DNA of 32,664 nucleotides from UHGV virus genome UHGV-2169520, one strand, 5' to 3'. The translations under genes and the position numbers were made by a program. How positions within the stretch are numbered: the stretch's first letter is position 1; every line of letters starts with the position of its first letter. Shown piece after piece: positions 3,555-30,657 of this stretch. The notes under the pieces are model-generated. The model did no database searches and was not told the origin of the DNA. It saw only the letters and a program-made list of their open reading frames with translations. This stretch comes from a virus.

Positions 3555-3806
3555 TTAAATATCAAGATTAATCTGAGTATTCCCCCTGTGAGATCCCGGA
3601 AAATCTTCCCACGGTATCCGCTCTGTACCCTGCGGCGACGGGGCGCGTTTTGATGTGAATTTGTTAAAACCCTCCAGTGTGGTAAAGCCGATCCCGCATT
3701 CGAGGTTATTGCACTGGTAGTACTTCAGGCGAACTGTGCCTGAATCATTTTCATTGCGACTGGTGCGGATACGTGCGGATGCACCGCATAGGGGACAACG
3801 GAACAT
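3555..3806 (-). CDS. ogr: Ogr/Delta-family zinc-finger late-gene activator
   Basis: MFRCPLCGASARIRTSR...YYQCNNLECG: C-x2-C...C-x4-C zinc finger matching P2 Ogr; SD AGGAGA 4 nt before ATG. Confidence 0.9.
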   Translation of the reverse strand: MFRCPLCGASARIRTSRNENDSGTVRLKYYQCNNLECGIGFTTLEGFNKFTSKRAPSPQGTERIPWEDFPGSHRGNTQINLDI

Positions 3807-22725: not shown

Positions 22726-24477
22726 ATGATTCAGGATACATTTGTTCGCCAGCGGGCACGCCAGCTGTACTGGCAGGGTTACCCTGTTGCGGAAATTTCC
22801 CGCCTTATGGGTATCAACCAGAACACGATCCATTCGTGGAAAAAACGCGACCAGTGGGATGAGACGCCCCCGGTTCAGCGTGTCACGCAGTCCATGGATG
22901 CGCGACTCATTCAGCTCACGGAAAAACAGAATAAAACAGGCGGGGACTTTAAGGAAATTGATTTGCTGACCCGTCAGCTTAAAAAGCTGCATGACGGTCT
23001 GCCGGATGAGACGGCAACAGGAAAGAAAGGCCGGGCGAAAAAACGCAAAAATCATTTCACGCCGGAACAGATCGCGGCGCTGCGGGAAAAAATTACCGAC
23101 AGGCTGGCCGGACACCAGCGCAAATGGCTTGATGCTATCGGTGCCTGTGAGCGTGCCGGAATTACTGACAGGATGATCCTGAAATCCCGCCAGATTGGGG
23201 CGACCTGGTATTTTGCGCAGGAAGCGCTGCTGATGGCGCTGCGTGACGATGTGGCACAACCTTACCAGCGTAACCAGATTTTTTTGTCTGCGTCTCGTCG
23301 TCAGGCGCTCCAGTTTAAAAGCATTATTCAGAAGGCTGCATCTGAAGTTGATGTGGAACTGAAAGGGGGCGATAAAGTCATCCTCTCCAACGGTGCAGAG
23401 CTGCATTTTCTCGGCACTTCTGCGGCCACCGCGCAAGCGTACACAGGGAATCTGTATTTTGATGAGTTTTTCTGGACGGGGCGTTTCGCAGAGCTGCGCA
23501 AGGTGGCTGCTGCTATGGCAACGCTGGATGGTTTGCGGTGTACCTATTTTTCCACGCCATCAAGTGAAACACATGAGGCGTATGCATACTGGAACGGCGA
23601 TCACTGGAATGAAGGGCTTCGTACTCATAAACGTCAGCATTTTGATGTGAGCTGGAATGCGCTTCATAACGGCCTTATCTGTCCTGACTATATCTGGCGG
23701 CAAATTGTGACGCTGGAAGATGTGGTCAGTCAGGGATGGACGTTAACCAACATTGACAAAATCCGGCGCAATAACACTGAAGACGAGTTCCGCAATCTCT
23801 ACATGTGTGAATTTGCTCGCGAAGGGGAATCGGCATTTAACCTGAATATCCTGATTGGCTGCGGTGTTGACGGATACGACGAGTGGCCGGACTGGAAGCC
23901 GTTTGCACCGCGTCCGATGGGGAACCGCCCTGTGTGGATTGGGTACGACGCCAACGGCAGTAGCGGGAACGGTGACAGCGGGGCGGTTGTCGTGGTGGTG
24001 CCGCCAGCCGTACCGGGCGGGCGTTTTCGCACCGTGGAGACGCGGCGGGTGCAGGGGCTGGAGTTTGAGGCGCAGGCGAAGGTGATTGAAGAGTTCACCT
24101 TTCGCTATAACGTTGAGCATATCGGTATTGACGTAACCGGCGGTCACGGGGATGCGGTGTATCAGATTGTGAAGCGCTTTTTTCCGGCAGCCATTCCCTA
24201 CACCTTCACCCTGTCATCAAAGCGCACGCTGGTTCTGAAGATGCTGCAGCTCATGCGCGCCGGGCGGTGGGAGTACGACCGCAGCGAGCGCGAACTGGTG
24301 AGCGCCTTTAACGCGGTACGCAAAACAAAAACGCAGGCCGGATTTATCACCTACGAAACAGATCGCGCAAGAGGCGTAAGCCATGGCGATCTTGCATGGG
24401 CCACCATGCTGGCCGTTATCAACGAACCTGTCGGCGGTGAACATGATGCCGCCCCCTTCAGTGTTACGGAGTTCTGA
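22726..24477 (+). CDS. P: Terminase large (ATPase) subunit P
   Basis: P2 gpP-like over full length. Confidence 0.9.
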   Translation: MIQDTFVRQRARQLYWQGYPVAEISRLMGINQNTIHSWKKRDQWDETPPVQRVTQSMDARLIQLTEKQNKTGGDFKEIDLLTRQLKKLHDGLPDETATGKKGRAKKRKNHFTPEQIAALREKITDRLAGHQRKWLDAIGACERAGITDRMILKSRQIGATWYFAQEALLMALRDDVAQPYQRNQIFLSASRRQALQFKSIIQKAASEVDVELKGGDKVILSNGAELHFLGTSAATAQAYTGNLYFDEFFWTGRFAELRKVAAAMATLDGLRCTYFSTPSSETHEAYAYWNGDHWNEGLRTHKRQHFDVSWNALHNGLICPDYIWRQIVTLEDVVSQGWTLTNIDKIRRNNTEDEFRNLYMCEFAREGESAFNLNILIGCGVDGYDEWPDWKPFAPRPMGNRPVWIGYDANGSSGNGDSGAVVVVVPPAVPGGRFRTVETRRVQGLEFEAQAKVIEEFTFRYNVEHIGIDVTGGHGDAVYQIVKRFFPAAIPYTFTLSSKRTLVLKMLQLMRAGRWEYDRSERELVSAFNAVRKTKTQAGFITYETDRARGVSHGDLAWATMLAVINEPVGGEHDAAPFSVTEF

Positions 24478-25532
24478 TGAGCAGAAAAAATAAACAACGA
24501 CGTACGAACGCCCGCGCAGCGCAGGGCAGCCTTGCGGATTCCCTGCGAAGCGACCCGACACTAAGTGCCTTCACGTTTGAAGGACCTTACCGGCTGTCAG
24601 GGGCCGACCTGCTGGACAGCATGTACTGCGCCGACAACGGGCGGTGGTTTGAAACGCCCGTTGACTGGTACGGACTGGCACGGGCTGCCCGCCAGACGTC
24701 CTGGCACCAGTCGGCGCTCAGCTTCAAACGTAATGTGCTGCTGGGCTGCTATATTCCACATCCTCTGCTGTCCCGCCAGGAGTTCGCCGGGGTGGCGATG
24801 GACTGGTTTGTGTTCGGTAATGCCTGTCTTGAGCTGCGGCGCAACATGCTTGGCGAACCGCTGGCCCTGCGCCGGGCGCTGGCGAAATACATGCGACGTG
24901 GCAGCGATATGAAATCATGGTGGTATATACAGGAAGGACAGGAAGAGTACCGCTTTCGTGAGGGGACGATATGCCACCTGATGAATCCTGATATCAACCA
25001 GGAGATTTACGGGATGCCGGATTACCTGGGCGGCCTGCTGTCTGCCAGCCTGTCACATTCCGCCGATATCTTCCGCAAGCTCTACTACGATAACGGCTCA
25101 CACGCGGGCTGTATTGTCTACATCGGTGCGGCGCAGGTTGACCGTGAAAGCATGGAAAAACTGCGGGAAACACTGCAAAGCGCGCGTGGTGGCGGGGCGT
25201 TTAAAAATCTGCTCATCCACGCGGCGGGAGGTGGTAAGGATGGCGTACAGATTTTGCCGTTTCAGCAAATCACCGCAAAGGATGAGTTCATGAACGTCAA
25301 GGCTGCATCGCGTGATGATGTGCTGTCCGTGCACCGTGTACCGCCGCAGCTGATGGGGGCCATGCCGGGTGAGAAGGGGTCATTCGGGGATGTGGAGAAG
25401 GCAGCCCGTGTGTTTGCCATTAACGAACTGATGCCCGTCATGGAAGCAATGAAACACGTCAACGACTGGCTGGGCGAAGAGGTGATCCGTTTTAACCCTT
25501 ACGCACTGTTAGACACCCAGCCCATATCCTGA
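24477..25532 (+). CDS. Q: Portal protein Q
   Basis: P2 gpQ-like; start overlaps P stop. Confidence 0.9.
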   Translation: MSRKNKQRRTNARAAQGSLADSLRSDPTLSAFTFEGPYRLSGADLLDSMYCADNGRWFETPVDWYGLARAARQTSWHQSALSFKRNVLLGCYIPHPLLSRQEFAGVAMDWFVFGNACLELRRNMLGEPLALRRALAKYMRRGSDMKSWWYIQEGQEEYRFREGTICHLMNPDINQEIYGMPDYLGGLLSASLSHSADIFRKLYYDNGSHAGCIVYIGAAQVDRESMEKLRETLQSARGGGAFKNLLIHAAGGGKDGVQILPFQQITAKDEFMNVKAASRDDVLSVHRVPPQLMGAMPGEKGSFGDVEKAARVFAINELMPVMEAMKHVNDWLGEEVIRFNPYALLDTQPIS

Positions 25533-25559
25533 CGCGCTTCGCTTGTCTGCTGCTTCGCC

Positions 25560-25582
25560 GGGGCATAAAAAATTTATGCCCC
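25560..25582. terminator. Hairpin between convergent Q and the 237-codon cargo gene
   Basis: GGGGCATAAA-aaa-TTTATGCCCC, 10-bp stem; no clear U-tract on either side. Confidence 0.3.
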
Positions 25583-25598
25583 GACTCTCCAGCTCTGC

Positions 25599-26312
25599 TT
25601 AACGAAGTGCTGATGGCGCTCGCTTTTTCAGGTGATTAGCGATGTGCTTTTTCATGTGCATAACAACATCGCCCCAGGCTTCTTCGCTGGGTTTATTGAT
25701 AAATACGCGAACAGAAATATCGTCTTCCACCCGGACTCTCAGAGACACCCGTTCCGCATCTACTGAATATAATTCAAGTGCAATAACCACGCTTACCGGG
25801 TAGCTGCTGTCAGATGACTTAACCCAGGTTCGCACGGCCATGCGGAAAATATTGTCTGGTGCAGATGCGATATTGTGGACTGAAAGAGGACTAAAATCCG
25901 CCGCTGTCTTACATGGCAAGCCTGTCTCCACGTAGCGGTGCAGGTCGCCATCATCGTCTTCCCAGTACATGGATGGAAGCCCCAGCCATTCTTCATAGAA
26001 ATCAATCAGCCTTGCCGCTTCATCCCGCAAAATTTGAGCTGCCTCAGCGCGTTTTTCTTCAGCTTCACGATTGATCTGGCATAAATCATTAAAGTGGCTC
26101 ATGACATTATCCTCTTTTGAGTTGATGCCTGCCGCTATTCTGACTTTGCCCGGGTTCTCCTGCAAGCTGGTTATTCCTTCAGATAATTTCACAACATCTC
26201 CAACCTTGTAGCCATCATCGCCGGGCGGATGCTTACGCAACCCCGCAACTCTGACGACATATTCTCGCTGCCTCAGTGCGATTTTGACGGCCTTATCTTT
26301 CACCCCCATCAA
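25599..26312 (-). CDS. Hypothetical cargo protein (237 aa, or 167 aa from ATG 26102), no recognisable domain
   Basis: Long ORF; internal ATG 26102 has strong SD AAGAGGA, first ATG has none; own transcription unit. Confidence 0.6.
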   Translation of the reverse strand: MMGVKDKAVKIALRQREYVVRVAGLRKHPPGDDGYKVGDVVKLSEGITSLQENPGKVRIAAGINSKEDNVMSHFNDLCQINREAEEKRAEAAQILRDEAARLIDFYEEWLGLPSMYWEDDDGDLHRYVETGLPCKTAADFSPLSVHNIASAPDNIFRMAVRTWVKSSDSSYPVSVVIALELYSVDAERVSLRVRVEDDISVRVFINKPSEEAWGDVVMHMKKHIANHLKKRAPSALR

Positions 26313-26528
26313 ATCAAGCTTTTACGTCTTTTTTACGCTCAGCGTGAGAAATACAGCCATTCTGTTGTGTCGCTGCAACATCGTTCAGGGAATGCTATTT
26401 ACCCCCTGAAACGCGGGCTGTTCCCCCGTCACCTGCGCGCAGAAAAAGGCCTTTTTTCGTGCACGCACGGATCCCCGACGGATCCAGACGCCACACGGGC
26501 CGGAAGGGCAAAAAGTCGTTCAAAAAAA

Positions 26529-26555
26529 TTGTGCAAATTTGTGCACTATTGTGCA
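26529..26555. repeat. Three direct TTGTGCA repeats at exact 10-bp spacing (candidate regulator binding sites)
   Basis: TTGTGCA at 26529, 26539, 26549, between the operon terminator and the 237-codon gene. Confidence 0.4.
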
Positions 26556-26564
26556 TTGAAATAA

Positions 26565-26587
26565 ACGCCCTGGAGGAGGGCGTTTTG
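26565..26587. terminator. Bidirectional intrinsic terminator ending the A-linked cargo operon
   Basis: ACGCCCT-GGAGG-AGGGCGT hairpin then TTTG on plus strand; U-rich tract after it on minus strand. Confidence 0.6.
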
Positions 26588-26592
26588 CTCAT

Positions 26593-26994
26593 CTATTTAT
26601 AGCCTTGCCCCTTACTGGCCAGCGCCCTGATGGCAGGGCGTGCCAACACCATATTTTGGCAATGATGAATTGCCCGGCAAAATTCATCTCTACCCATTGG
26701 ATGCTCAACTGGCAATGTAAAATACAGGTTCCATGCATCGCCTAAAAGTTGGGCTATCTTTTGTTCTTCAGATGTCAGCAAGCGGTACTCCCCATCCTTG
26801 ATGTAGTCACTTGTGCCATCGACCTGCTGTTCTGCAATGTGGAAAGCACCTATTGGTTTTGCTTCCAGCGATGCCAAAGCAATCCGTGCCAGTTTTTCCG
26901 CTTCTTCGGCTGGCAGTACAACGTTGCTACCAGGTCCGTATGTTTCGCGCCACTGCCTGATTGTCAGTAGTCGCTCTTTGGTTATAGTGGTCAT
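26593..26994 (-). CDS. Hypothetical cargo protein (133 aa)
   Basis: SD GAGGA 7 nt before ATG; ATGA overlap with upstream gene stop. Confidence 0.65.
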   Translation of the reverse strand: MTTITKERLLTIRQWRETYGPGSNVVLPAEEAEKLARIALASLEAKPIGAFHIAEQQVDGTSDYIKDGEYRLLTSEEQKIAQLLGDAWNLYFTLPVEHPMGRDEFCRAIHHCQNMVLARPAIRALASKGQGYK

Positions 26995-27200
26995 TTGTTA
27001 ATCCTCAAAACTTTATGCCCGGGCGCAAAAGCACGAGTTTTGTCTTTGCTTATTCGCCAGCCATCCTTACGCGCCTCTTTTGCACAGCCAGTCCATGACG
27101 TACCGATATATTCACCGAAGTCTGGCGTTTGATATTTACCATTTGTACACTGGCGACAATCACAATAGAGATGCATGGTGTAACTTGCGGCAATAGCCAT
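26991..27200 (-). CDS. Hypothetical Cys-cluster protein (69 aa), possible metal-binding
   Basis: SD AGGAGA 5 nt before ATG; ..HLYCDCRQC.. and ..TGCAKE.. Confidence 0.6.
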   Translation of the reverse strand: MAIAASYTMHLYCDCRQCTNGKYQTPDFGEYIGTSWTGCAKEARKDGWRISKDKTRAFAPGHKVLRINK

Positions 27201-27201
27201 A

Positions 27202-27516
27202 TCAGTCTCCTTTGATGCCAGTGTTTACAACCTGACAAGCCTCTTTGAGCACCCAGTCAACAGCGTCTTGCCATGCTCCGGTTTCGACTGGCGGATTCTC
27301 ACGCTTTACCAGTTCATAGAAACGTACTGCTCTAACCAGTCCATCTGACGGTTTTGCCTGTAGTGCAGCCTGAGCTATGCGGTATACCTGGAGCATACAG
27401 GCGTCGTTGATATCCATTCCGAATGGAATATCTGATGACTGAGATTCCACATCTTCCAGCCTGGCAATTTCTTTACGTAAGAAGCCTTTCAGTTCCTGCT
27501 TCTGTTTCCTGTTCAT
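27202..27516 (-). CDS. Hypothetical cargo protein (104 aa)
   Basis: ATG 27516 with SD AAGGA at 7 nt; the ORF-track start is a TTG five codons upstream. Confidence 0.6.
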   Translation of the reverse strand: MNRKQKQELKGFLRKEIARLEDVESQSSDIPFGMDINDACMLQVYRIAQAALQAKPSDGLVRAVRFYELVKRENPPVETGAWQDAVDWVLKEACQVVNTGIKGD

Positions 27517-27527
27517 ATATTTTTCCT

Positions 27528-27722
27528 TCAAAGTTCGGTTCGCTGACAGGGTTTCTCTTTACGGCAGACAATGACGCTGCCTTTGCTCGAGTCGGTGATT
27601 GTTACCGTGCCGTCATCACACTGGACAATGACAACGGTGTTGCTCTTTTTCGCTACGCAGTTCGGCGTGGCTGATTGTGCGAATGGCGCGAAAAACAGCA
27701 GAAAAAGTAATATTCTGCTCAC
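27528..27722 (-). CDS. Small secreted 4-Cys protein (64 aa; predicted signal peptide)
   Basis: GTG start 27722 with SD GGGAGG at 8 nt; VSRILLFLLFFAPFAQS-ATPNC.. signal-like leader; Cys-containing mature part of ~47 aa. Confidence 0.55.
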   Translation of the reverse strand: MSRILLFLLFFAPFAQSATPNCVAKKSNTVVIVQCDDGTVTITDSSKGSVIVCRKEKPCQRTEL

Positions 27723-28150
27723 TGTTGTTTCCTCCCGTTCTGTGCTGGTCTGGCGAATGAATTGCGTTGTGGTGAAAAGACCATTCGCGCCAGCGCGGCC
27801 TTGTGATTGACTGTGTTCAGTGTTCTGGCCAGTCCGCCGTTGTGCCTGCGTGTCCGCTCTTCGTGATATCTCTGCATGATTTTCCCGGCAGGCGTGCACG
27901 GCTCCGGTTCCTCCGGCGAACGGCGCGGACGAATGACGACAGTCCAGCTATGGCTCTCGCTGCCCGGCCGCCTGTTGAGTATGTCGGCGATGGTGGTCTC
28001 CGTGGTGCGATCGGGGCTGACTATCGTGATTTCCAGCTCGTCGCCCGGTTGTGGCCTTGTGGCAGGCCTGAACAGTGTCAGCACCGGCATACGCTGGCGC
28101 ATGATGGCCTCAAACTGTGGGCGCTGCATGGTGCAGCAAAATCGCGTCAT
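27719..28150 (-). CDS. Hypothetical basic cargo protein (143 aa), coupled to gene A
   Basis: ATGA overlap with A stop (28147-28150); SD GGAGG; Arg-rich C-terminus. Confidence 0.6.
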   Translation of the reverse strand: MTRFCCTMQRPQFEAIMRQRMPVLTLFRPATRPQPGDELEITIVSPDRTTETTIADILNRRPGSESHSWTVVIRPRRSPEEPEPCTPAGKIMQRYHEERTRRHNGGLARTLNTVNHKAALARMVFSPQRNSFARPAQNGRKQQ

Positions 28151-30657
28151 GCTCCCGCCTCCACTGGCTGCTCTGTGATGATGTGACGGGCTGACTCATC
28201 CCAGTACGCTGTTCCCCCGTTATCCAGACGCACACGGGCACCGTTACGCACGGAGATGATGGCCGCGTCAGGCAACTGCACACCCAGCGCATCAAGTTCG
28301 CGGGCGATTTGCGTGTCCGTCGCGGTATCCGCAGGCACGACAATCCCCACCCTTACAGGGGTGTCAGATGCCGGTGTGGTGTCGTTTTGTCCGGTTTTTG
28401 CGCCCGACGGCTGATTTTTAATCTGATTACGCAGTTTTCTCCGATCGCCCCTGCTTAACGTATTCAGCCAGCTTTCCAGGTTCTCTTCGGGAAGCGTCAG
28501 TCGTCCGGGGTCCTGCCTGTTTTCTGGTCCGTGATTGTCTGTTTTTTCATCCCGGGGACAGTTATTGCCACGAGTCCAAGGGGCGACGGGGTCGCCCTGA
28601 AGGTCAAAACCCTCGCCCGTGCGGTTGTCTGGTGTTGTTTCTTTTTTAACCAGTTTCCACTCGTCCGGATGGGTGCATATGGTGTACCGCTCTCCGAGCG
28701 ACGGGGCGCAGATTCCGTAGATACGTTGAGGGAACTCACCGTAGTCGTTGGCTTCGTCTGCGGTTTCGTATGCGGTGCGGACCAGATACTGGTTGCGCGG
28801 AATGAGCACACCACCCTGTTTCATGATGTAGGTGGCAAAACATCCCACATCTGCGGCAGCCATAATGGCGTCAATATCGTCATGATCGAGGTGCTTCGGT
28901 GATGCCGGGTTGCGCTCCATCTGGCTTGCAAGGCGGCGGAGTTCACGCCATACCTGGCGGGGCGGAATGCCGAAAAACTGGAACTGACGGATGCGGTGAA
29001 GGCTTGCCCAGGCAATGGCGTTCTCCACGGTTTCCGCCATGGTTTTCCCGGATTCCTCATCAACGTAAGGTTTTCCGGTTTTCGGATCATTGTTGTGGAA
29101 AGCGCTGGCGTCCAGGTTCTTACCGATATAGGTTGCGATATAGCTTGCCGGTGTGCCTTTTTCCGGGTCTATCTTCTCGCATTTAAAGCGCGGTGAAATA
29201 TCGTCCCCCAGTTCGTGGCGATCTGATTTAATTGCTGCTTCGCGCATAATTTCGATGATGCGCTCTGCGTTCTCCGGGGAAGTGAATACCAGCATATGCC
29301 AGTGTGGCGTGCCGTCATGGTGTGGCTCAGCGGTTCGCACGCCGTACCAGCCCAGCCCCTCTTTTTTTATTTTTTTTCTTACGGCTGCGAAGAAGTCGTA
29401 AACCAGATAATCACTGGCATCTCGTACTGTGGCACCGTTGTATTTCGGGTTCAGGCTGCCGTTCTCGTTCACGCTGTGAAAGCGGGAAGGGGTGGTTACT
29501 GTGATGAAGAATGCGACGTCAGCCCGTAATTCGGCCACCATCTCCATCCCTCTGACGCAGACCATCATTTCATTGCGGCGGTTGCGTGGATTACCCAGGC
29601 CAGCCCAGTACACGTCCTCCAGACTCAGGCGCTCGCCGTCTTCGTTTTCAATATCCCAGCTTTTGAGAAAGTCACGGGTGCGCTGGCGCTTCTCGCGGAA
29701 CTCCAGTAGTGACTCATGGCTGATATAGGGGGATTGTTTACGTGACACTCTGCCGGCGGCGCGCAGTAACTCCTCCCGCCAGAGATCGGCGACGTGGCGT
29801 AACTGGTTGTTCCACCAGGTCGCGCAGGTGATGCGCAGTACCGCACCCGGAACCCGTTCAGGGTCCGGCGGTGTGCGTCGGTTGTGCCTGATTTCGAGTT
29901 CCGGCCAGTATGGCGGGACCACGCCCAGAATTAAGGCTGTGCGTGCCACCTTCTGGTAGGCCAGCAGCCAGATAACCGGGCTGTCATTATCCTTGCCTGT
30001 CCGTTCAAGAACTTCATCACATATGCGTTCAAATTCTGCGGCGAATGCCTGGGCTGTCAGTGTGGCGATGCGCTGGATTTCGTCACGGGTGAGTTGCGGC
30101 AGTGTGAGCAGTTCTTCAAGGCGATGGCGCACGACGGTGGTTTTGAATGCCGGCGTTGCAAAGCGGTCGTTAACCCTTTCAATACGTTTCAGGCGCGCAC
30201 GCAGTCCACGGCGAACGAAATTATCGGCCACGTATGCGCTGTTGTTTTTTACACCTTCACTGCGGGCACTTTGCTGTTTCCGGTTCAGTCGTGCCAGATC
30301 ACGGATCAACACACTGGCAAGAAACGAGGGCAGGGTGCGAAGTTCGGCTATCGCCTCCGATACCGCCGTTGGCGGATTTTCGCGTCTGTGTCGTGCCAGC
30401 TTATCCAGCCTTATCTGCCGCTCTTCGTCCCGGTGAAGGTGTGAATTAATTTGCTTACCTTTGTCCGTGGTTGTCAGGAAGGCCACGGTTTCTTCATCCA
30501 GCCGGGCCTCAGTGCGAATGTCTTCGGTGAGGTAGTCACGGATTGCCCGTTGTAATGCGGTTGGCTTCTGCGGTAATGCTCTGCCGAATGTCTCAGGATC
30601 AATAACCGGCAGCGGGGCGTTCCACGGGTACGCCAGGTGCGTGTGGTGATGGCTCAT
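28147..30657 (-). CDS. A: Replication initiation endonuclease A
   Basis: ..YGVRTAEPHHDGTPHWHMLVF.., ..WASLHRIRQFQFFGIP.., ..YGICAP.. blocks as in P2 gpA. Confidence 0.9.
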   Translation of the reverse strand: MSHHHTHLAYPWNAPLPVIDPETFGRALPQKPTALQRAIRDYLTEDIRTEARLDEETVAFLTTTDKGKQINSHLHRDEERQIRLDKLARHRRENPPTAVSEAIAELRTLPSFLASVLIRDLARLNRKQQSARSEGVKNNSAYVADNFVRRGLRARLKRIERVNDRFATPAFKTTVVRHRLEELLTLPQLTRDEIQRIATLTAQAFAAEFERICDEVLERTGKDNDSPVIWLLAYQKVARTALILGVVPPYWPELEIRHNRRTPPDPERVPGAVLRITCATWWNNQLRHVADLWREELLRAAGRVSRKQSPYISHESLLEFREKRQRTRDFLKSWDIENEDGERLSLEDVYWAGLGNPRNRRNEMMVCVRGMEMVAELRADVAFFITVTTPSRFHSVNENGSLNPKYNGATVRDASDYLVYDFFAAVRKKIKKEGLGWYGVRTAEPHHDGTPHWHMLVFTSPENAERIIEIMREAAIKSDRHELGDDISPRFKCEKIDPEKGTPASYIATYIGKNLDASAFHNNDPKTGKPYVDEESGKTMAETVENAIAWASLHRIRQFQFFGIPPRQVWRELRRLASQMERNPASPKHLDHDDIDAIMAAADVGCFATYIMKQGGVLIPRNQYLVRTAYETADEANDYGEFPQRIYGICAPSLGERYTICTHPDEWKLVKKETTPDNRTGEGFDLQGDPVAPWTRGNNCPRDEKTDNHGPENRQDPGRLTLPEENLESWLNTLSRGDRRKLRNQIKNQPSGAKTGQNDTTPASDTPVRVGIVVPADTATDTQIARELDALGVQLPDAAIISVRNGARVRLDNGGTAYWDESARHIITEQPVEAGA

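Follow-up and report, generated by a model that had tools for sequence, protein, structure and literature searches.

A 69-codon open reading frame (ORF) in the cargo region of a P2-type prophage was found to be a genuine gene of phrog_926, a large, catalogued and uncharacterised family without a detectable structural relative. Comparison of homologous sequences suggested with high probability that its product is a domain stapled by zinc. Four Cys/His ligand positions were conserved across the family, and one of the four ligands was exchanged between two alternative positions in a compensatory manner. On the same comparative grounds, the protein would be one of the small zinc-binding phage accessory proteins, an already known sort of gene. 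The window referred to below is the whole stretch of DNA that was analysed, i.e., 32,664 nucleotides of the viral genome UHGV-2169520.

Identification of the gene and its family

The ORF begins with ATG, follows a Shine-Dalgarno sequence and is translated as MAIAASYTMHLYCDCRQCTNGKYQTPDFGEYIGTSWTGCAKEARKDGWRISKDKTRAFAPGHKVLRINK (Table 1). A single base (27201) lies between its ATG (27198-27200) and the TGA of the upstream ORF (27202-27204), and its stop codon overlaps the ATG of the downstream ORF as ATGA (26991-26994). An earlier sequence-only reading of this DNA had described the 69-aa ORF, the 1-nt gap and the ATGA overlap, and every coordinate detail was correct. Across 29 distinct variants of the DNA taken from related viral contigs, dN averaged 0.022 and dS averaged 0.216; the dN/dS of approximately 0.10 indicated that the gene is real and under purifying selection. 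Residues 1-69 of the protein aligned to profile positions 1-69 of the 69 in phrog_926 (E=6.6e-37, 126.7 bits). The ribosome-binding site, the low dN/dS and this full-length match establish the ORF as a genuine gene.

The same profile was matched by all 137 of the diverse homologues collected. Searching 1.84 billion cluster representatives with a profile yielded 401 clusters (50% identity) at E<=1e-3, the members of which were nearly all stand-alone proteins of 60-85 aa. A Pfam scan of the 137 members revealed one homologue with a C-terminal HTH_17 DNA-binding domain, which could be a gene-calling artefact. Another homologue (P0088) carried a separate Lar-like C-terminal domain, represented by one phrog_599 hit that was assigned to this protein from its sequence. 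A tandem duplication fused in one ORF was observed in a 134-aa homologue (P0048), in which the first copy was cut off just before the P-G-H knuckle and was followed by a complete second copy.

Homologues were detected by tblastn in 427 deposited phage genomes. Identity was 90-99% in Stx and other lambdoid phages and 35-48% in virulent Ackermannviridae of Salmonella, Klebsiella, Dickeya and Serratia; matches were also found in Klebsiella siphoviruses and, at 31% identity, in Rogunavirus. At the DNA level, 666 of the 5426 complete E. coli genomes (about 12%) carried the gene, and 177 of the places were on plasmids, mostly non-mobilisable, phage-like plasmids of 90-110 kb such as pO111_2. Distant copies were located on Klebsiella plasmids of 200-370 kb and on a Vibrio replicon. 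The family occurs in temperate phages, virulent phages and phage-plasmids. Its surroundings in the P2-like prophage, the Stx lambdoid phages, a Kosakonia prophage, a phage-plasmid, Kuttervirus, Rogunavirus and a Klebsiella siphovirus are gene arrays of the early, replication or nin type.

Profile searching, a check proposed with the sequence-only reading, matched phrog_926 only, and the entry for this family in PHROGs v4 carries no assigned function; a clear match to a known family with an assigned function, which would have spoken against that reading, was thus not found. Every source named the homologues 'hypothetical protein', including a second large homologue search covering source names and domain architectures. 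A literature search (phrog_926, WP_000951718, CxCxxC bacteriophage, exo-xis zinc) found no paper on the gene, and a modelling paper on the exo-xis region (PMC8614690) does not cover it.

Table 1. Positions of the gene, its inferred functional elements and the surrounding features in the window.
Feature	Position	Strand	Basis or remark
Gene of the putative zinc-stapled mini-protein family phrog_926	26991..27200	-	ORF: ATG start, 69 aa
Shine-Dalgarno sequence AAGGAG	27207-27212	-	Sequence reading; 6 nt 5' of the ATG, within the DNA block common to Stx phages
N-terminal metal knuckle C13-D-C15-x2-C18 (three of four inferred Zn ligands)	27147..27164	-	Alignment counts
Codons of Cys13, Cys15, Cys18	27162-27164, 27156-27158, 27147-27149	-
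Codon of Cys39	27084-27086	-
C-terminal knuckle A59-P60-G61-H62 (His62, fourth inferred ligand; position 59 is Cys in the sister subtype)	27015..27026	-	Alignment counts
Codon of His62	27015-27017	-
Basic face: predicted helix 36-45 and hairpin 48-58 (residues 36-60), consensus AR.DGW[RK]I..[DK]	27021..27095	-	Column composition
Mobile DNA block, ~360 bp: RBS, whole gene, first ~45 codons of the downstream gene	26855..27213	-	Megablast
Downstream ATGA-coupled ORF, 133 aa, truncated chimera: Ea22-like N-terminal module and unrelated C-terminus	26593..26994	-	PHROG, PGAP
Upstream ORF, 109 aa (104 aa per PGAP), mosaic, Ea22-region type	27202..27531	-	phrog_26213 and phrog_660 match the C-terminal half
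Small ORF, 64 aa per PGAP	27528-27722	-	PHROGs 20764, 11462
Replication protein A	28147-30657	-	Pfam Phage_GPA, E=2.3e-104
Terminator-like hairpin	26531-26546	-	After the downstream remnant ORF
Non-coding gap, 280 bp	26313-26592
Last cargo gene before the portal gene, 237 aa	25599-26312	-	phrog_5091
Counterparts of the P88 terminase ATPase subunit and portal	22726-24477, 24477-25532	+
Ogr/Delta late activator of the prophage	3555-3806	-	PF04606, E=4.9e-14

Conserved positions of the putative metal ligands

Ligand residues were counted in a MAFFT alignment of 137 diverse phrog_926 members. Position 13 was an invariant Cys (137/137), followed by an acidic residue in 93% of the members (D14 in the present protein). 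Position 18 was Cys in 111 members and His in 7, i.e., C/H in 118/137, and position 62 was His in 93 and Cys in 44, so that all 137 had a ligand-capable residue there. Cys was less frequent at position 15 (76/137) and at position 59 (66/137), the latter being followed by P60 in 127/137. These two positions were complementary: 71 members had only C15, 61 had only C59, five had both and none had neither (Fisher p=1.7e-33, uncorrected for phylogeny). One or the other was thus present in 137/137, and the ligands of a generic four-ligand Cys/His zinc site were conserved family-wide. The exchange was replicated in 60 further distinct IMG/VR sequences, with 28 C15-only, 31 C59-only, one both and none neither. 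Each of the two characters needed at least 26 state changes on a neighbour-joining tree, a rough and noisy tree built from only about 40 non-ligand columns, which indicated that the pattern is not one ancestral split. Loss of Cys15 only where Cys59 has been gained, with rare intermediates carrying both, is what a four-ligand metal site demands.

The conservation of the ligands and the C15/C59 exchange strongly support C13, C15, C18 and H62 as the putative site in the present protein. The ligands of the sister subtype would be C13, a C/H near position 18 and those of a C-P-x-C/H knuckle. Cys39 was replaced by A/T/V/I in 57/137 members, which placed it outside the metal site. The sequence-only reading had called the Cys cluster, together with a distal Cys and a His, compatible with a small metal-binding fold. 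The fold was upheld by the four conserved ligand positions and the exchange, but the distal Cys, which is Cys39, had to be dropped as it is not conserved. Conservation of the Cys residues in homologues, the check suggested at that time, showed through positions 13, 18 and 62 that the cluster is not a product of chance.

A Cys3His or Cys4 ligand composition suggested that the bound metal is most likely zinc. The Cys residues might instead form a redox-active cluster, such as a rubredoxin-like iron centre, a small Fe-S cluster or a thiol/disulfide switch responding to oxidative stress, given that a CxCxxC motif is able to bind iron or to form disulfides. In favour of such a centre, one study links the exo-xis region of Stx phages to oxidative-stress-dependent induction, but that work concerns other genes of the region (PMC4699033). 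In the present family, the site always comprised exactly four Cys/His ligands, with His in 93/137 members and Cys/His exchange at two positions. Such exchange and a His ligand are the signature of structural zinc sites, not of Fe-S clusters, and we consider a redox centre highly improbable.

Predicted fold and charge distribution

The pLDDT of the AlphaFold2 models was 81.7 when 12 sequences were supplied and 83.9 when 137 were, and the secondary structure was identical in both: a beta strand at residues 7-13, a helix at 16-19, a strand at 28-33, a helix at 36-45 and short strands at 48-49 and 57-58. The predicted fold can be described as a beta-beta-alpha-beta-beta unit. A Foldseek search against the PDB found no solved relative (best E 1.9), and fold matches in BFVD were only uncharacterised phage proteins, some of them from actinobacteriophages.

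Lys or Arg occupied columns 41, 44, 45, 49, 52, 54 and 56 in 50-90% of the members, and A43, G47 and W48 were nearly invariant across the aligned members. The mean net charge was -2.5 in the N-terminal half, +3.4 in residues 36-62 and +1.8 in the tail. Most members are electrostatically polar, with an acidic N-terminal half opposed to a basic helix, hairpin and tail. The median pI of the members was 8.45 (9.4 for the query protein), and about 9% of them had a pI of <6.

Genomic location and shared DNA block

The window belongs to the P2-type prophages, more precisely to the P88/Xuanwuvirus kind, and the gene is placed in the variable cargo region, the stretch that runs from the replication gene A to the portal gene. 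Just 31% of this stretch is shared by P88, the closest phage, and the cargo content differs even from that of P88. The whole 2.7-kb arrangement was present in only 22 of the 5426 complete E. coli genomes. Within it, megablast (query positions 1356-1714 of the segment 25500-28200) aligned a mobile DNA block (Table 1) to Stx and other lambdoid phages at 93-96% identity. The matching region in the Stx phages is the exo-xis region. In VT2-Sakai, the gene corresponds to orf7 and lies between an ea22-like gene and xis/int, the position held in lambda by ea8.5, which lies between ea22 and xis.

The gene is located 3' of gene A and three small ORFs, all in the same orientation and with overlapping or abutting stops and starts. 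Given this shared orientation, the packed ORFs and the terminator-like hairpin that follows the downstream remnant ORF, transcriptional read-through from the early operon is plausible, and the gene is probably read through from gene A. An Rfam scan of 25400-28400 detected no RNA family.

Two other cargo genes deserve mention. The last one before the portal gene encodes a 237-aa protein and is parted from the other cargo ORFs by a non-coding gap. Given this gap and the terminator-like hairpin ahead of it, the gene may be an independently expressed moron, perhaps one expressed in the lysogen. The product of the small ORF at 27528-27722 has a hydrophobic, signal-peptide-like N-terminus (ILLFLLFFAPFAQS) and four Cys residues; its only matches were to PHROGs of unknown function, and it could be a cargo gene for a predicted secreted protein or lipoprotein.

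Neighbouring genes

The tight spacing had led to the proposal, in the sequence-only reading, that the protein acts with its neighbours. On this view it would be a subunit or co-factor of the coupled 109-aa upstream ORF and of the Ea22-like/DUF551-type downstream ORF. Besides the 1-nt gap and the ATGA overlap themselves, two observations among close relatives agree with such a partnership. In roughly 66 of 77 IMG/VR loci, an ATGA overlap joins the gene to a downstream gene that starts with the N-terminal module MTTIT...LASLEAEP, and in the nin region of a Kosakonia prophage a 62%-identical homologue is likewise followed by a DUF551 gene. However, the Ea22-like/DUF551 gene downstream is hyper-mosaic in close enterobacterial relatives: its product ranges from 86 to 449 aa, its modules are shuffled, and this N-terminal module is all that is shared. 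In the loci L006-L085, the intragenic mosaicism of the Ea22-like/DUF551 genes was striking, with shuffled modules joined by linkers of the 'AAPPVPVVPE' type.

In the present window, the downstream ORF is itself a truncated chimera. Its residues 1-76 match the Ea22-region families phrog_60, 3323 and 660, and residues 72-133 match phrog_13916, a family with the dubious label 'DNA ligase'. PGAP annotates only about 26860-26994 (the first ~45 codons) as 'incomplete, missing C-terminus', a pseudogene remnant, and plasmid pO111_2 carries the same stub behind the gene. In other phages, e.g., at locus L029, the downstream gene ends in the module that makes up the C-terminal part of the upstream ORF (...AVRFYE.VKRENPPVETGAW.DAVDWVLKEACQ...), implying that the upstream ORF was drawn from the same shuffling gene pool.

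Beyond the close relatives, no recurrent neighbour family was found in 43 non-redundant diverse loci, save for inherited synteny within Kuttervirus, and no Pfam family occurred in >2 of the 138 neighbours at these loci. The neighbours that matched Pfam included DnaB, replication protein O, DNA methylase, HNH, Lar, NinX, DUF551 and Prim-Pol, and the genes beside the homologues in Kuttervirus, Rogunavirus and the Klebsiella phage were unrelated. The junction that the close relatives share lies within one inherited DNA block, so the adjacency reflects common descent. The tight spacing can be ascribed to ordinary phage operon packing and shared descent, and it gave no evidence of a functional complex. 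Judged from these comparisons of gene order and sequence, the proposed partnership, whose ATGA-coupled member occurs only in close enterobacterial relatives, appears largely refuted and is very unlikely.

Putative function and significance

In the explanation that we favour, the gene would be an autonomous accessory gene of the phage early region encoding a mini-domain of about 65 residues. A domain of this size would be too small for a stable hydrophobic core and would rely on a single metal ion, bound tetrahedrally, to hold its fold. This ion, most likely Zn2+, would be ligated by Cys13, Cys15 and Cys18 in the knuckle after strand 1 and by His62 in the A-P-G-H knuckle, and would link the loop of the first hairpin with the C-terminal end of the beta-beta-alpha-beta-beta unit. 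The basic face would then bind a polyanion, with DNA or RNA as the most probable partner, in the early phase of infection or following induction, and no dedicated phage-encoded partner would be needed. Taken as a whole, this explanation has about an even chance of being correct. The step of nucleic-acid binding is put forward more tentatively, at slightly worse than even, and the basic face would suit an acidic protein surface equally well.

In the main rival reading, the protein would not be a nucleic-acid binder. The zinc-stapled domain would dock on a host protein and inhibit or redirect it, acting as a counter-defence or host-takeover factor; candidate targets are a component of a defence system, a subunit of RNA polymerase or the replisome, or a nuclease. 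Core regulators are less typically spread so sporadically through accessory regions than genes for host interaction or counter-defence, and the present gene, small and stand-alone, is scattered over the accessory arrays of unrelated phages, both temperate and virulent, and of phage-plasmids. In P2-type phages, the slot between gene A and the portal gene is a hotspot for defence and anti-defence cargo, and it is this slot, with a content differing even from P88, that holds the present gene. Lar-like restriction-alleviation domains adjoin or are fused to two phrog_926 members, and the lack of a conserved neighbour is as expected for a host-targeted factor. Even so, we rate an effector of this type as rather unlikely.

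A more far-reaching version appears improbable, namely that a structurally new zinc-stapled fold has spread horizontally by neutralising or hijacking a broadly conserved host component, for example, one of nucleic-acid-based defence, a replication factor or a transcription factor. If it were true, the family would represent an undescribed class of phage host-interaction effector, carried by about 12% of complete E. coli genomes and by the Stx phages of EHEC.

Small zinc-binding accessory proteins are already known in phages, but for phrog_926 no name, Pfam model, NCBIfam model, structure or paper was found. The compensatory Cys15/Cys59 exchange defines the metal site. The protein is stand-alone, tiny and apparently independent of a partner, and its structure and target could therefore be determined quickly. 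Doing so would annotate thousands of 'hypothetical protein' entries, and the annotation would reach the poorly understood exo-xis region, which influences the induction of Stx prophages. Its abundance, including in the Shiga-toxin phages of EHEC and in the virulent Kuttervirus and Rogunavirus, makes the family a cheap and worthwhile target, although nothing in the present findings is startling.

Comparison with known families

The protein had no Pfam match at E<=0.1 and no NCBIfam match, and none of the 137 members matched the Ogr or DksA/TraR families in Pfam at E<=0.01. No family of the defence-system collection PADLOC-DB v2 was matched at E<=0.1. Four of the five flanking ORFs were likewise without a match in PADLOC-DB v2, and the upstream 109-aa ORF had only a weak match to PDC-M28C (E=0.01, 12.7 bits).

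A resemblance to fibronectin type II repeats (MMP-2, MMP-9) was noted in residues 29-49 (family eyiGkswtecakeaRkdGwRi; query FGEYIGTSWTGCAKEARKDGWRI), which recall the pattern G-x-S-Y-x-x-C-T-x-x-G-R-x-D-G-Y-R-W. It caused the family profile to hit metazoan gelatinases, including a 697-aa protein with nine stretches; the look-alikes comprised the PDB chains 1l6j_A, 1eak_A and 1cxw_A and protein P0079. The E value of each stretch was no lower than 2.2 when full-length chains were the target, and it was 0.099 for an isolated 60-residue FN2 domain. As the similarity was non-significant per repeat and maps onto a predicted helix in the present protein, it was rejected as chance or convergence, and probably reflects chance. 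The beta-beta-alpha-beta-beta units of protein G B1 and protein L were also set aside, with noise-level scores and no relation in sequence (6-12% identity), and these units bind no metal.

Among zinc-binding folds, SWIM domains have the motif CxCxnCxH and THAP domains have C-x2-4-C-x35-53-C-x2-H. Both, together with the Ada N-terminal domain and primase CHC2 fingers, were absent from the fold searches, and their ligand spacing is unfit. The Lar restriction-alleviation zinc ribbon (PF14354) was not matched by the query at the profile level; one neighbour in a diverse locus was Lar-like.

Three small zinc-binding phage proteins offer closer parallels. Lambda Ea8.5 (PDB 2M7A) has an equivalent genome position and is likewise small and zinc-binding, whereas its fold is a hybrid of homeodomain and zinc finger, and hhalign showed it to be unrelated to the present protein (probability 0.8%). 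Proteins of the TraR/DksA type, which include lambda Orf73, share small size and the exo-xis neighbourhood of lambdoid phages, as well as the zinc binding and early expression proposed for the present protein. The C4 finger of this type (PF01258) was not detected in the query at E<=0.1 or in the 137 members at E<=0.01, and no sequence or fold match to TraR or DksA was obtained in the PDB. The predicted beta-beta-alpha-beta-beta fold also differs from the helical hairpin of TraR/DksA, and the acidic DxxDxA tip described for lambda Orf73 is absent from the present protein (PMC8614690).

The Ogr/Delta proteins (PF04606) resemble it as small zinc-binding proteins of P2-type phages. The remark in the sequence-only reading that the Cys spacing fits neither Ogr nor DksA/TraR was borne out: neither the query nor the 137 members had a Pfam hit to these families, and the hhalign probability against the Ogr homologue of the same prophage was 0.16%. 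That homologue shows that the Ogr of this prophage is already encoded elsewhere (Table 1). Ogr has four Cys ligands in two knuckles, spaced C-x2-C-x22-C-x4-C, whereas the protein described here has the spacing C-x-C-x2-C...x43...H.
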